Positions 47,514 to 62,097 of a stretch of DNA of 64,000 bases are shown piece by piece. A program made the translations under genes and the position numbers. Within the stretch, counting starts at the first letter, position 1; each line of letters opens with the position of its first letter. The notes beneath the pieces were generated by a model. That model saw only the letters and a list, made by a program, of their open reading frames with translations. It made no database searches and had not been told where the DNA came from. Origin of the DNA: Narcine bancroftii (taxonomy: Eukaryota); NCBI RefSeq assembly GCF_036971445.1, contig NC_091475.1:53010001-53074000 (forward strand), given 5' to 3'.

Positions 47514-47689
47514 GAATTACAGGATGGAATTGGAAGCCAGAAGGCTGCTGTCGCTGGTTTGAATGTGACCGGAGAAGATATTATTGGACAGTCGTCACCT
47601 GTTGATGGCGGCATCCTCAAGGAGAAACTGTGTGAGCTGAACAGACGCTGGCAGGAAATCTGCAGACAGGTGGATGAGAGAAAGAGAAG
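47514..47689 (+). CDS. DMD: Dystrophin internal coding exon, orthologous to human DMD exon 45 (spectrin-like rod repeat)
   Basis: Acceptor ttctctttgcttttgttttacag and donor AAG|gtaatt; length 176 nt, phase 0 start and phase 2 end, as in human exon 45. Translation ELQDGIGSQKAAVAGLNVTGEDIIGQSSPVDGGILKEKLCELNRRWQEICRQVDERKR(R) aligns without gaps to the recalled human ELQDGIGQRQTVVRTLNATGEEIIQQSSKTDASILQEKLGSLNLRWQEVCKQLSDRKKR. Confidence 0.93.
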
Positions 47690-47899
47690 GTAATTTCATG
47701 GTTTCTCTTGCACACAAGCGCCATAATGTTGAAGGAGTCGTTTGAGGTACAAGATGGCCTTGTTTCAATGCTTTGCTGTATTTGAGGTGTATATAGTAAA
47801 AAAACTGGAAATTTTTCACATTCACCTCACCATCTGTGACCATGAAAATAAACTGATTATCCGTCATCTGTTCTCCTTTTACTGAAATCAAATGTGTAT

Positions 47900-48460
47900 A
47901 TTAATCAAGGACAGGAGCAAGCCACTTGGCTCATGATTCAGCTCTGCTGTTCAATATCATCTCAACTGATCTGATTCACTATTCCTTTCATCATTTCCTC
48001 CTACCCTGGTAACCTGTCACTTATTTGCTTATCTCAAATCTATTTATTCAAAGACTGCTTTCACCCCTTGTTGAAGAAGCAAGTTCCTGTCTCCAAGACT
48101 TCTGGCCCCTGGTTCCAGTGTCTCCACAAAAGGAAGCGTCTTCACATCTGCCACATCAAGACCACTCACAATCCCATGTTTCATTCAACTTGCCTGTCAG
48201 TCTCCCTCCATTCCAGTGGAAACAGCACAACTCCATCCAATGTTATTGAGAAGACAGTCCACCCATCTTCTTTGCTTCAAATGCATTGCAAGCATGGCTT
48301 AAATAAGGAGATCAATTGTCTAACCAGTTCTCCAGAATTGTTCTGATCAATGCCCTACATGAATGAAACCACGCTGTTTGGTCCGTCTAATTTTCAAAGC
48401 TAGAACATTCAATTAGCTTTTCAAATTAAGATTCTTGCGCACTGTTGATTGGTGAATCAT
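47900..48460 (-). mobile_element. Old CR1 3' region
   Basis: caggagcaagccacttggctcatgattcagctctgctgttcaatatcatc and downstream degraded CR1 motifs. Confidence 0.55.
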
Positions 48461-54659: not shown

Positions 54660-55040
54660 GAGACGTAAGAACTCCAAATGCTGAAATTTTGAGCAGATAC
54701 CGAGGCTGGAGGGGGGTCTGTGGAACAGGCAGCAGCCACAGAGAGCAATATACAGTCAGCATTCTGGGGAAGGACCCTTTTTTGAGACTAAACTGGGAAG
54801 GGGAGATAGAGGGGAGAGAAGGACTGGGGAGTGGTTGAGGTGAGAGAATACTGGTGGGAGAGGTGGAGAAACAGATAGGGAAGGAGAACACTGAGGGTGG
54901 GGACTTTGAGAGAAAGGGAATAGGTAAAGAACAGATGAAAAGAGTGCAACCAGACCGAGTTGGGGGGTTACCTAAAAGTAGAAAATTCATTGCTCAGGTT
55001 GTTGGGTTTTTTTTGATGTCCTGGAGGAACATGAGGTGTT
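54660..55040 (-). mobile_element. Old Penelope-like 3' region
   Basis: Terminal-repeat remnant plus GA-rich tract and gaacatgaggtgttgttcctc. Confidence 0.6.
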
Positions 55041-55556
55041 GTTCCTCAAACCCAACATTGTGTCATTTTTGTCTTCTCTCAATTCAGGCCTTTTCCCTTC
55101 CGTGTGTTACTCAGTGCAGAGCTAATGCACAGGATACTCTGCCGCAGTCTGCTGTCGGCAATTTGCATTCGCTGATGATGTCCCCGTCTCAATCATCCAA
55201 TGAAAAGCACCGTGAAATTGCCAAAAGAATGGAAATATGACATTTCAGCATATATTTTACCTTCTGCTTGCCTCATGTCTGCTGAGGATAATGGATTAAA
55301 ATTCCCTTCCTTGTAACTTGTGACTTTTCATTAATGTTGTCTTTGCAGCCTTGTTTGTAGACATTTTGCTCAAGACAAAATGAAGATCTATGGCCAGCTG
55401 CCAATGGTATTTAATCTTCAGGGTGCCATCAATTTTTTATGTTGGTGAACAGCCCTGGTTCTTGCAAGACAATGAGGAAGTTACTTATGACTTGGCCTTA
55501 ATGGAACATGGAAAACAACTTCAAACCCAATCACACCAATGTCAAGCTGAACTTCT

Positions 55557-55697
55557 NNNNNNNNNNNNNNNNNNNNNNNNNNNNNNNNNNNNNNNNNNNN
55601 NNNNNNNNNNNNNNNNNNNNNNNNNNNNNNNNNNNNNNNNNNNNNNNNNNNNNNNNNNNNNNNNNNNNNNNNNNNNNNNNNNNNNNNNNNNNNNNNN
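55557..55697. other. Assembly gap (141 N)
   Basis: Run of N in the sequence. Confidence 0.99.
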
Positions 55698-55699
55698 CT

Positions 55700-56020
55700 T
55701 CATTCAAAACACGGCCTTTGTTCTTAATCATCCACATCCAGCAAATACCCTCAGTGCTTCCTTGGAGAAAAATAGTCATCTCATCCACTAATGGGATCCA
55801 ATGAAAATGGAGTCAGAACATCCAAGATGCAATTTACAATCTCAGACCTCTTCGACAAGAGCCCATTGAAGCCCAAAGGAAAGGTTGGAAACAGCACACC
55901 CACCCAAACACCATCACGCACCTCCTACCCCACCTGTAGTGCTGTCTGTTATTTATTCAACAGCCTCATCGGCCACCTCAAAACCCACAGAACTGCAGCT
56001 GAAGCAACCTCACCCCTTTG
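55700..56020 (+). mobile_element. Ancient RTE LINE 3' end
   Basis: Degenerate zinc knuckle YPTCSAVCYLFNSLIGHLKTHRT. Confidence 0.55.
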
Positions 56021-56094
56021 AACTGTCAGAGAAAAGCAAGAATTGCCTTTGAATTGACTGGCTTGTGAAGCCATGTTAGTGGTAATTGTAATTT

Positions 56095-56222
56095 AAACTG
56101 CATGTAGACCTCAGATTGAGGTTAATAAACTGCTCGGAGATCGTAAATTGAGGTTAGTAAACTGCATGGAGACCTCAGATTGAGGTTAATAAACTCCATT
56201 TTGACCTCAAATTGAGATTAAT
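56095..56222. repeat. 32-bp minisatellite, 4 units, with palindromic core
   Basis: Consensus aaactgcatggagacctcagattgaggttaat. Confidence 0.9.
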
Positions 56223-57429
56223 AAAAATAGAGTGAGTGAATAGAGTGAGTACAACCAATTTTAATTCCCTTAGGGGCGTTATTATTTTAGACCTATTCAA
56301 TTAACTGACTAAATTCCTTGGTCACTATGAACTTGCCTTTTGATCAATATTCCAGCTTTGTGGGTTGCCTTGTTTAACTTGATCACTATCCAACTGTGTT
56401 CCCATTTATTTGCTGCCAGTTTGGGTCAAATTGGTATTCCCACTGGAAGTATGGTGACCTGAGTATTAATGTGCAGAGGATAATGTAATAGATTTTAAAG
56501 GTTAGTAAATTGTAAGGAAGAATTTTTGCATAACACATCAAAGTAAAACTGAAGAAAAAGATAAATGAAAATATCGAGGAACCAATAATTGAAATAATAT
56601 TATGTCCAACCACTTTTTAAGAGTGTATGATCTGCATCAGTTCTGTCTTTTAAATACCATTGTTATTGGAAAGGAATGTAATTTTTCACTGTGTCAATAT
56701 TGTGAGTTCAACCTAGAGCTGATGCACAAGTTTATTTTACACATAAAATTTCCAAGGCAGGCCTTCGAAGGATGTGAGGAATGGATTACCAGAGTATTGG
56801 TGCTTTCACTGTTGAATTGATTTAACACATTCAGTTTGGCAAAGTTTTGTGAGGAACTTTCTCAGAGTCTTATTACACAAAATGCGTCATGCATTCCATG
56901 CACATATTTTCAACATAAAGAAATTAAAATAATCAATTGTTTTTTTTTCCCGGGGGAGGGGGGGAGTGAGAAAACATTTTACTCAATTTTCTGTGAAAAG
57001 CATTGTGTTCAGTAATCTAAATGGCGATTTATTTTTCAAAAGCAATAACAGGCCTTTTTATTTTGCAACCCCGCATTAAAGCTGGCTCACAGAAAACAAA
57101 AGGTGAATTGGCCTTTTATGGTGACAGCTGATCATGTGGATCCAACGTTCCCTTTATGGAGAGCAGAGTCAGGAGCTGTTTTTCAGAGCTGAAGGAGGCT
57201 GGGCGAGTGGTGAAGTCATGCCTCCCATCACCATGATGTCAAACAAACACGTCAGCAAGTGAAAAATTAATAGAGGCATTTCCCTCGCACTCAAAAGAAT
57301 AACAAAACTTTTGCCATCACTCACATGAATCGAGTAATTAACCTTTAGAGACAAATTGCGTTTGCTATTGCCTTGTATCTGAACACACTGAGCACTTTAA
57401 AATTTCCGCTTGGGTCACAATCGCGACGT

Positions 57430-57652
57430 GATCAGCCTTCCCCTTTCCAGCCACTTATAGTGGCATTCATTTAATGGAGGAGGTGGAGCGACTACACTCC
57501 ACCTTTAAATGTACCCCCCGAGGCTGATGGAAGCTGGAGTGTATTTCAGTAGTCCATCCACCTTTGGACTTTTTATGGAGGTAAGTGCGGCAATGTAAAG
57601 GTGGAGAATCTCTGTCTTTACAATCGCCTTTTTTCTCTCCATAAAAAGGCCT
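57430..57652. mobile_element. Harbinger-like MITE fragment related to family C
   Basis: End ataaaaaggcct and gtaaaggtggagaatct shared with 26444-27187. Confidence 0.5.
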
Positions 57653-58145
57653 AACGAGAAGAAAATACTTTGTGTTTTGAGTGTGGTATGATCAAAGTAT
57701 ACTGCAATTATCCGGAGTACAGTCCTATCTATTCCATTGGGGATCAACTTCTTTTATCCTCTTTTGTACCTCCTTTTGGTAGAAGGCCCAAGAATAAGAG
57801 CATTCTCTTCATCTGACCTTTGAACATTTATTCTGATGAGGTTTAAAAAAAAATGCACAGTGTTGGCTGCTTTAATCAACTTCGTAATTCGGCATCTTAA
57901 AAACTCATTGCATTTGGTGAGTAATTGAATGCTGACAACACAATTGGTTTCATTTCACATGGTTGTAAATTCCTCTGAGTATAGTTAAATGTTTAAAATC
58001 CAGGCACAATTTCAATCAAAATTAGACTTGGAATTTTCTTGCTGATAACATTGTGCCTCGAAGAGAGGAACATTTGTCCAAACAAATGTACACTACCTCT
58101 ATTCAATTAATTCTAGTTGTTTTTTTTTTCTCTTTCTTCTTTCAG

Positions 58146-58157
58146 AAAGAAACCAAG
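58146..58157 (+). CDS. Candidate 12-nt alternative microexon of dystrophin (adds 4 codons, R-K-K-P)
   Basis: ttgtttttttttttctctttcttctttcag|AAAGAAACCAAG|gtatgg; multiple of 3 and no stop in the exon-45 frame (AG|A AAG AAA CCA AG|). No transcript evidence available. Confidence 0.5.
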
Positions 58158-58159
58158 GT

Positions 58160-58695
58160 ATGGTCTTCACAGGTATTTTCTTGAAATGGCAAAACAACCT
58201 ACTATATGCTGCAGTCAATTCTCAATCACATCCATTTCAGTGTTTAATTCTGATGCACCATGGAAGTTCAATCTGGCTCTCTCATTTACCTCCATTTGAC
58301 ACGTCTCTTCTGTCATTCTCATTTCATTCAATTATTTCCCAGACCAGTGTGTCACTCCTGTTTACTTCATGGAATATTCTCAGTGTGTCTTTTTCATTGA
58401 CTTCATTAGAGAAGGTTCATTTTCAGTTCCTTCCATTTAAAGCAACCTCAATATCTCATTTTCACTGACTCCATTATATACCACTCCAATGTGTCATTCT
58501 CATTTTTGCTATTAGTGTCAATGTGTCTTTCTCAATTACTACAGTTAGATAGAATGGCAATATACAATCACATTTTGTCCAATCACAAGCTTTAGCTTTA
58601 ACGTGTCATTCTCATTTCCTTGCATAAGATGCATGTCCAAAATGTCATTCCAATTTACTTTCATTGAATGCAAGTCCTTGAGGAAACATTCACCA
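58160..58695 (+). promoter_or_regulatory. YCAY-rich cluster (putative NOVA-type intronic splicing enhancer) with one TGCATG (RBFOX motif)
   Basis: About 28 YCAY tetramers by hand count, many as tcattctcatt doublets; TGCATG at 58630-58635. Confidence 0.45.
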
Positions 58696-59074
58696 AAAAA
58701 AAAATTAAATCTGGTGCCAAATTCTAATTATTCTCACTCTATGCTTTTTATGCGCCAATGAAATGGAAGATTACTCTTGCAGCATGGGTAGTTAACAACT
58801 ATTTGGCTGATAGCAATTTGATTTTGTATCATAATATATCTTCACCCTCCATTGCATCAGATGTCATTTAAGTCTCAAGATTTGAAACCAGCTTCATGAA
58901 AAATAAAATCATAATCCCATTAAGACAGCAGAAGATTCAGCCTGTGTGCTGTTTTCAGGGAAGCCATTTGGATGCTGCCAGATTTGATTTGAATTGAGTT
59001 CTTACAAACATAAGAATGAACTTGTTTGGTTTTGCAACCAACATTTTAACTCCTTATTACTTCTATTGAATTTA

Positions 59075-59590
59075 ATTTGATTTGGGTTGTTTATTGTCCT
59101 GTGTATCAAGTTGCAGTGAAAAGCTTCATTTTGTGTGCTATCCAAGCAAGTCATCCAATACCTTGTAGAGCAGGCCGTGCAAGAATATAAACCTATCGAA
59201 CAATAAAACAAAAGAGCAGGATATTGTGTTATATACCACAAAAATGTTATTGTGTTAAAGAAAAAAGTACAGTTAAACAATGCAAGGCATCATCTTATGC
59301 TCAAAGGACATCCATTCAAGAATCTGATCATTGAAAGAAAAAAAATTGTTCTTGAATCTGGAGGTGCTTGAATATATTGGCTGCTTGCCCGAGGCAGCAG
59401 GAGGTGAAGAGAGAGTCAATGGAGAGGAGACTGGTCTGCATGATGGCTGGAGCTGTGCTCAGATCACTCTCCTGCTGTTTGTGGTTGTGGGCAGAGCACT
59501 CCCTGTATCCAGAGAGGATACTTCCAATGGTTCATCCATAAAAATCAGTAAGGAACTGGGGGGCGTGCCAAATTTCCTCAAGTCTGGAAA
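59075..59590 (-). mobile_element. Rex1/Babar 3' end
   Basis: cattcaagaatctgatc..ttgttcttgaatctggaggtgc, the reverse 3' end. Confidence 0.6.
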
Positions 59591-59739
59591 GTCAAATGTA
59601 GCATTTTATTTTGTTGCATTTACAATTCTGTTGAACAGTCTAAATTCTATTAGTTAGTATTTTGAATGCATGCAGTTACTCACCAGATATAACTCTGCTG
59701 TCTGACCCACATACTGAATTAGTGTTCGTCTGTGGCGTT

Positions 59740-62097
59740 GCTCATTATTAACTCCCCATAAGAATGGGCCACAGCAGCACTACAAAACTGCTTTGAGACC
59801 ATGGACTGGAGTGGTTTCAGGGAGCCGGCCAACTATGATGGCCATTTAAACATCGAGTAATACACGAGCTCAGTGATTGGCTGCGTCAACAAATGCATTA
59901 AGGATGTCATGGAGATCAAATGATACACAACCAGGGCTAACCAGAAACCATGGTTGGACACAGAGGTCCGTGCACTTCTCAGCATACATGATACTGCATT
60001 CAGGGCAGAAGATAAGATGGCACTAAGATCAGACAGGGCTGAACTCTCCCATGCAATCTGTAAAGCAAAGCGTAGGTACGCATAGAGATCCATATATAGA
60101 TAAATGACACCGGTGACACAAAGCGCATGTGGCAATGGATCAAAACTATAACAGGCCACAAATGAACCTTGCGATTCAAAGACAATAACACCTCTTTTGT
60201 GGACAGTCTGAACCTCTTCTATGCACAATTCATTGAGAAGAACAGTCTGACACTGAAGAGAGCTCCATTTCCCCCCAGATGAGCGGACACCTGTATAGGT
60301 GCAGGTGAGGAGAATCCTATCCAGGGTGAACTCAAACAAGGCAGCAGAATGAGACAACATGCCCACTCAGGTGCTGAAGGACTGTGCAAACCAGCTAATG
60401 CAGTTCCTTATAGGCATCTTCAACATATCATAGTAGCAGTCCATCATCCCCTTGGGTTTGAAGACAGCTACCTTTATCCTGGTATCAAAGAGGGAGTCAT
60501 TAAAAGGCCTCAATGACATAGGCCCAGTGGCACTGATTTTCACCATTATGAAATGCTTTGTGTGTCTGGTGATGGAATGCATCAAAGAACACCTCCCAGC
60601 AACACTGGAGCCATTTCAATGTGCCTACAGGCAGGACAGTTCCACTGATGATGCTATAGCCTTGTCCCTCCACTCCATTCTGTCCTACTTGGAGAGCTAC
60701 ACTGTGCATGCCAGTTGATTGACCAGCTTGACATTTAATACTATCACATTGAGTACTTGCTGGGACTCAACACCTTTCTCCGCAACCAGATTCTGGCCTT
60801 CCAAATGGAAAGACCAAAGTCTGTCTGGGTTGGCAGTAGAATGTCGAGCACCGTCAGGCTGTTCCCTGGCCACCTCAGAACTGTGTACTCAGCTGGCTCC
60901 TATTGCTGAGCCACGACTGCATTGCCAGATGTAGCTCCAACAGTGTTATCTGGTTTGCAGATGGCACAATAGTACTTGGACTCATCAGCAACAACAATGA
61001 GTTGCACTACAGAGAAGAGGTGGAAAATATTGTGGAATGGTGGTGCAAAAATAACAACGAATCTCAAAGTGAATAAGACAAAGGAGGTGATTGTGAACTT
61101 GAGGAAAACCAGGGACTACCACTCTCCACTACGCCTTAATAGCTCAATAGTAGAGAGAGTGGAGAGCACCGAGTTCCTCAGAATCCACTTAACATGACCT
61201 ATACTGGGCACACATGTCCTCACTTGTCAGGAAGGTGCAACAGTGTCTGAACTTCCTGAGAAAGCTGAAGCGGGCAAGGCCATCATTCTATCAACTTTCT
61301 ACAGGCGCACATTCGAGAGCATCCTGGCTGGCTGCAACAGTGTGGTATGGTTGCTGTAGAGACTTGGATTGGAGGTTGATCCACACAAGTATAAAAGCAG
61401 CAGAGAAGATCACTGGAATCTCCCTCCCCACCCCCCCCCCAATATGGTAATTTACCATATTGTTGTTCAAAGAGGGTTTGTAAAATCAGAGAGAACACCT
61501 GGCACCTCAAGTGCAGCATCTTCTAGCTACTCCCATTGATAAAGAGGTACAGAAGTATCAGAGCCAGAACTACCACGCTGAGAAACAGGTTCTTCCCACA
61601 GGCAATAACAGATGAACTGCTGAAAAAACTCTCTTGAGATGCCACTTTTTATTAATACGGTGGAGAATGCCTTACCCAAAACGCATGGGACCAGAAGTGT
61701 TTCGGATTTTTTCAAATTTTGGAACACCATTTAAAAAATCCACTCCTTTGCTCGAAGATACATTCATTCACATTACAAGTATTTACATGTGCCCAAATTA
61801 ACTGAAGTAGACGTATATTGAAAAATCTATACTCAGTAATGCACTACTTGCGTCCGGTTCTCCGATTGGGATTTCTGAACTCAATTATGTATTACCTTAT
61901 GGGATTATGAATGAAAAAAATGTTAAATTTTGGATCATTTCAGGTACTCAGATCAGGGGTACTCAACCTGTTTATTTTAGAGATATTTATACATGTACTA
62001 GTCTCCACATCTCAATGTCTGTATGTGCATTTGCATTATTTTGCATTCTGGACTGAAGAACGCTACTAGTACAATCGGATGATAAATAAACTTGAAT
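59740..62097 (+). mobile_element. Rex1/Babar LINE, long degraded copy
   Basis: Peptides [60 protein letters not shown] and VRKVQQCLNFLRKLKR. Confidence 0.9.
61658..61970. mobile_element. Tigger/pogo-type MITE resembling Tigger4/MER46
   Basis: TA|cggtggagaatgccttacccaaaacgcatgggaccagaagtgtttcggatttt ... gatcaggggtactcaacctg. Confidence 0.7.

Follow-up and report, generated by a model that had tools for sequence, protein, structure and literature searches.

The DMD gene around the site

The window, meaning the whole 64,000-nt stretch of DNA analyzed, contains a single dystrophin exon, at 47514–47689 on the plus strand. This AG/GT-bounded open frame of 176 nt, which ends in phase 2, was assigned to exon 45 by size and sequence, using a number that we take over from human DMD. 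It matches named dystrophins, is covered by contigs in 3/3 of the runs described below, and encodes a peptide with 72% identity to chimaera dystrophin and 52–68% identity to the amniote proteins listed, so that its owner is probably a ray or shark. From the genome (3.3 Gb), 600 kb was fetched on each side of the window and 70 DMD exons were mapped. Exon 46 (G000:C16:53084577-53084724, L003:577-724) lies outside the window, starting 10.6 kb past its end, and intron 45 is 26,887 nt long. Exon 48 (L009:4991-5155) is 165 nt here and 186 nt in human DMD; bird and alligator proteins align to it without extra residues.

A candidate 12-nt exon in intron 45

All elements of the candidate exon are on the plus strand. 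The polypyrimidine tract (58117–58143) is 27 nt long with one G, lacks TGC and contains three copies of TCTT, presumably a PTB-type motif. The tract is followed by the acceptor AG (58144–58145), 12 nt of candidate exon (58146–58157) and a proximal donor, GTATGG (58158–58163), exactly the sequence and place given in the preliminary description. That account was also correct in naming the gene and exon 45, in the phase, and in predicting that inclusion would add four residues, RKKP, without a change of frame. The only consensus branch-point match within 80 nt upstream, a predicted YTRAY-type motif at 58107–58111, lies 39 nt upstream of the candidate exon. The proximal donor scores 8.6, an average value that 30 of 70 training donors reach.

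A second donor, absent from the preliminary description, lies 15 nt beyond the first (58173–58178, score 7.75) and would produce a 27-nt form (58146–58172) encoding 9 residues. Both donors preserve the frame, and both forms are within the 3–27 nt, AG/GT-bounded, in-frame class of microexons. If both donors are ignored, the frame stays open from 58146 to 58299 (50 codons to a TGA); AATAAA occurs at 58902 and 59202, downstream of the acceptor.

Splice-site strength

To score AG..GT pairs spaced 3–30 nt apart that exceeded the cut-offs, weight matrices were built from the 70 DMD exons of the same genome, at sites picked automatically (a few of them wrongly) and with the candidate outside the training set. 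Over 1.264 Mb, the candidate pair, with a score of 25.0, was the best of 1258 sense pairs and outscored every one of 1070 antisense pairs. Its acceptor had the top score on either strand and outscored 70/70 training acceptors.

The best antisense decoy, 9 nt long and in frame, scored 24.1. A 10-nt sense pair in intron 43 (G000:C16, ~190 kb before the window, L024) scored 23.9; it is out of frame, carries a UGC and may be a decoy or a poison-type exon. Below a score of 22, antisense hits were as numerous as sense hits or more so. A motif as strong as the candidate's thus turns up at random roughly once in every 1.3 Mb of strand, and the splice motif alone is therefore no proof of an exon. When DMD exons 71 and 78 were used as positive controls, neither was recognizable among the best five candidates of its own intron. 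Three genuine agrin microexons of the same genome scored lower than the candidate (Y, 12.8; Z8, 13.6; Z11, 20.2), so that a high score is not a marker of a genuine microexon.

Assembled transcripts

Contigs were examined from three runs of one study, which carry no tissue labels and are presumed, as a guess, to be RNA. In 3/3 assemblies exon 45 is joined directly to exon 46 and the candidate is skipped. The contigs that carry both exons are 1787, 9735 and 3975 nt long (depth 189, 75 and 18), and no letters intervene at the junction (contig positions 206→207, 7173→7174 and 976→977, respectively). As a second line of evidence for skipping, the loose ends that precede exon 46 correspond to the end of exon 45. 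Since the letters of the two exons are contiguous in three contigs, skipping is what these samples show in assembled form. Inclusion limited to certain tissues or to a minority of transcripts is compatible with this result, because contigs drop minor forms and the tissues are unlabeled.

No joint between exon 45 and the candidate was found among the joints listed (51 others are outside the list). Positions 58113–58242 are covered by none of the contigs listed, a gap that proves nothing. Two sequence differences were recorded in these runs. At 47558, within exon 45, run X2 has C versus T, most simply read as the allele of another individual, and at 58062 one X1 contig (depth 5) is missing 2 nt, through polymorphism or error.

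Conservation, paralogue and repeat content

Out of a set of 366 proteins, 142 passed the cut-offs for both exons (45% and 35%) and 224 were dropped; 142/142 span the exon 45/46 junction without an insert, a sample consisting mostly of birds that includes two chimaera fragments and no shark or ray. Homolog and representative searches returned no full-length shark or ray dystrophin, only a single-exon relative (P0178) and the two chimaera fragments. A utrophin-like paralogue of exon 45 was located at G000:C9:75582872-75583039 (L124, L126–L135), where the next intron is ~3 kb, versus 27 kb in dystrophin, and the best 10 candidates in 100 kb contained no in-frame counterpart in the matching intron. 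No mammalian counterpart of the candidate exon was found, and a 24-nt pattern over the candidate had 0 matches in metagenome contigs, which is uninformative. A full-text literature search, within the portions of the papers it reached, did not turn up any description of a microexon in intron 45 of DMD; subscription papers, supplements or VastDB could list one.

No repeat-free run in the 120 kb tested is longer than the one that surrounds the candidate (54889–59373). This run includes a stretch of N, and the ~3.7 kb beyond the N is still the longest. Only 3.7% of bases in the 120 kb are in a repeat-free run of that length, which fits, weakly, with selection against insertions. Segments 57900–58400 and 58160–58760 each have a single match in the genome, as judged by a search that skips very common words. 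Exonization of a transposon tail, with the tract being an antisense poly(A) tail, was considered and rejected: the site is single-copy, has no repeat match and has low depth, compared with thousands for repeats. Because the site is both repeat-free and single-copy, it contains no recognizable transposon tail.

YCAY motifs downstream of the candidate

Downstream of the candidate is a YCAY- and TCAT-rich intronic stretch (58226–58648, plus strand) that was absent from the preliminary description and is predicted to be a NOVA-type enhancer. The cluster was first spotted by eye and then tested. The 500 nt after the candidate (+1 to +500) contain 26 YCAY, 25 of them in this stretch, and 14 of the 26 are TCAT; the means are 9.7 and 3.0, respectively. 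The stretch consists of ~36–39 nt units in a decayed tandem array and is also rich in TGTGT and GTGTC. Tandem Repeats Finder reported 0 arrays in 57000–60000, and a separate repeat search showed the decayed array only.

How unusual this density is depends on the comparison. Over the 1.264 Mb, 14 TCAT were reached at one sense locus, the candidate's own, and at four antisense loci, while 26 YCAY were reached at 18 sense and 10 antisense loci. None of 5000 mononucleotide shuffles reached 14 TCAT, and the YCAY excess over dinucleotide shuffles was not significant (503 and 609 of 2000). Some 4-mer was equally enriched in 8% of 926 tiles. None of the 70 training exons had more than 7 TCAT or more than 23 YCAY downstream, and 26 YCAY or 14 TCAT followed none of 992 antisense candidate acceptors. 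GTGTC (z 9.2) and TGTC (z 5.1) were also strongly enriched downstream.

NOVA silences exons from the upstream side and enhances them from the downstream side, where +10 to +40 was the interval tested; CCAT is typical of NOVA-enhanced exons and TCAT of silenced ones, as given in the accessible text of that study (PMC4054596). The 190 nt upstream of the candidate contain no YCAY. A NOVA-type cluster, with three close YCAY downstream and none upstream or within, is present, with sums of 12 at +126, where the first scoring window begins, and 14 at +296. As log10, these sums are 1.08 and 1.15 versus a published cut-off of 0.6, for which the accessible text states no log base (PMC2014790). The same score is also reached by ~5% of 200-nt tiles, and over the first 100 nt after the candidate it stays at zero. 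There is only one YCAY at +10 to +40, where enrichment marks NOVA enhancement, and TCAT outnumbers CCAT 14 to 5 in the candidate's cluster, compared with 4 to 8 for agrin Z8. As a NOVA signature, the density is genuine, and the position and motif type are not textbook.

The first 500 nt of the intron after exon 45 (47690–48190) contain 23 YCAY, the highest count for any of the 70 exons, and have a tight cluster at ~+125 to +155 (score sum 22) that may influence the same decision between inclusion and skipping.

Predicted effect on the protein and on Dp140

The Pfam spectrin repeat ends three residues past the exon 45/46 junction, which we take to be the boundary between R17 and R18. In an AlphaFold model of an insert-free chimaera fragment (mean pLDDT 80, pTM 0.48), the junction falls within an unbroken helix (residues 56–115) and has pLDDT 87–90. 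Four additional residues, one of them a proline, would likely kink the helix. The nNOS site is in R16–R17, and R17 binds syntrophin, according to the accessible part of a published account (PMC10789850).

Dp140 splices onto exon 45 and is translated from exon 51, and the text available to us leaves its presence in cartilaginous fish open (PMC1790709). Exons 45–50 contain no methionine, compared with 2.6% in the other exons (P about 7e-4). Exon 51 (exons 45–51: window 47514–47689, L003, L009, L010, L013) retains a methionine in the MPSSLL context and has another methionine 13 residues earlier; intron 44 measures 217 kb. The locus thus agrees with most of the published criteria for Dp140, which suggests that Dp140 may exist in cartilaginous fish. 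If it is made here, a neural microexon at the site would be untranslated in Dp140 and coding in the longer isoforms only.

Interpretation

The candidate is, on balance, probably a real cassette exon. The narrower reading, that it is a neural, NOVA-type cassette microexon with skipping as the default, is given slightly less than an even chance. These and the gradings that follow are judgements, not computed values. The neural microexon proposed in the preliminary description gained support from a downstream YCAY cluster that resembles the one after agrin Z8 in layout and from a repeat-free setting; on the other side are skipping in 3/3 assemblies and the absence of UGC. Nothing in the analysis supports its suggestion of an electric-organ isoform.

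The neural reading would work as follows. Ordinary exon definition needs more than 12 nt, so exon 45 would be joined to exon 46 by default. Outside neurons, the TCTT-rich tract would probably be covered by PTB-type proteins. Binding of NOVA to the YCAY cluster (+69 to +490) would probably favor the proximal donor, as we infer for agrin Z8, and 58146–58157 would likely be included in neurons. The four residues would enter the R17–R18 helix and probably kink the rod beside the R16–R17 nNOS/syntrophin region. The fullest version is somewhat unlikely as a whole. In it, sharks or rays would make a neuron-specific dystrophin through a microexon that is switched by NOVA and has a choice of two in-frame donors (4 or 9 residues). 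The microexon would insert a basic, proline-containing hinge between R17 and R18 by the nNOS/syntrophin site, under an enhancer built from a TCAT-bearing tandem array.

A serious possibility, which we place below the neural reading, is that the site is a silent decoy or pseudo-exon, in which an AG and a GT came by chance to follow a T-rich tract near a decayed TCAT-bearing minisatellite, and that it is spliced in never or only rarely. Skipping in 3/3 assemblies and the absence of the insert from 142/142 proteins are as expected of a decoy, as are the antisense decoy of nearly equal score (24.1) and the internal repetition of the TCAT-rich stretch (period ~36–39 nt). Human DMD introns offer precedents, pseudoexons that score well as splice sites but are seldom included (0.4% and 3% in the table rows considered; PMC5206723; PMC7175933). 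However, one site would then have to combine by coincidence the highest-scoring splice pair, the richest sense-strand TCAT cluster and a repeat-free run longer than any other nearby, and 26 YCAY or 14 TCAT lie downstream of 0/992 antisense candidate acceptors.

It is improbable that the candidate is a real cassette exon of another kind, with inclusion in muscle, heart, electric organ or embryo driven by UG- or U-binding proteins (by motif, the CELF, RBM24 and TIA types) and NOVA neutral or repressing. The enrichment of GTGTC and TGTC downstream (z 9.2 and 5.1) points in this direction, as do the accessible statements that TIA proteins can bind TCAT-rich clusters (PMC4054596) and that NOVA represses 9- and 12-nt ROBO exons (PMC6687390). 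Against it, all three runs contain spliced dystrophin contigs (depth 18–189, up to 9.7 kb) that skip the candidate, and dystrophin-rich samples would often be muscle. Use of the acceptor in some other way, for a 27-nt exon, an alternative last exon (50 codons and a stop, hence a truncated dystrophin) or multi-step intron removal, is very unlikely: the second in-frame donor (7.75), the open frame as far as 58299, the AATAAA motifs at 58902 and 59202, and the frequent coincidence of DMD pseudoexon sites with predicted recursive sites, as reported in the accessible text (PMC7175933), would fit, but no listed contig runs from exon 45 into the site, the AG lacks the following GT that a zero-length recursive site needs, and intron 45 is only 27 kb long.

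If the neural NOVA-type reading is true, the candidate would be an 80th, lineage-restricted DMD exon. Physiological splicing in the dystrophin rod is sparse, and neural microexons are a well-known class. A regulated insert at R17/R18 would be a natural test of the rod's tolerance of a kink next to the nNOS/syntrophin region, and the site falls in the exon 45–55 zone targeted by exon skipping.

Comparison with known microexons and DMD cassettes

Short alternative exons elsewhere in DMD provide one comparison. Human exons 71 and 78 and pseudoexons 1a, 21X and 51X are, like the candidate, short or cryptic cassettes of the same gene with good splice scores; exons 71 and 78 encode C-terminal parts, whereas the candidate lies in the rod. 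In human muscle, the accessible text of one survey describes 12 low-level DMD splicing events, none of them in intron 45 and none shorter than 32 nt (PMC5206723).

The candidate shares with the SRRM3/4 neural microexons the 3–27 nt class, frame preservation and a strong pyrimidine tract. Those exons have a UGC between branch point and AG in 74–79% of cases and lack it in 21–26%, as stated in the available text (10.1101/2024.09.17.613571). In contrast, the candidate has no TGC at −40 to −3, and its tract abuts the AG, whereas theirs is set back and the 3′ site is weak. NOVA represses ROBO1/2 exon 6b (9 and 12 nt) through both flanks, according to the accessible portion of the report (PMC6687390); the candidate has the same size and YCAY in a flanking intron, but its YCAY are downstream only.

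Agrin was located by Pfam in the same genome. Its Y (12 nt, G000:C5:143117950-143117961), Z8 (24 nt, G000:C5:143108631-143108654) and Z11 (33 nt, G000:C5:143103760-143103792) exons are all present on the minus strand (L139–L140), with identities that we assume from peptide motifs and position. Agrin Y and Z11 have 8 and 7 YCAY and 1 and 3 UGC, respectively. Agrin Z8 has 21 YCAY at +1 to +500, none at +10 to +40 and no UGC, compared with 26, one and none for the candidate. Both Z8 and the candidate are short in-frame cassettes with an acceptor lacking a nearby UGC, few YCAY in the first 60 nt of the downstream intron and a diffuse, distal YCAY cluster beyond. They differ in that Z8 is 24 nt long, has weaker sites (13.6 versus 25.0), TGCATG at +50 and a CCAT-rich rather than TCAT-rich cluster, and is known in other chordates. 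In Ciona, inclusion of agrin Z requires downstream YCAY clusters, according to the accessible text (PMC12445529), and by analogy Z8 may be NOVA-regulated in this fish, as a single control. The candidate thus resembles agrin Z8, unlike the SRRM3/4 type.
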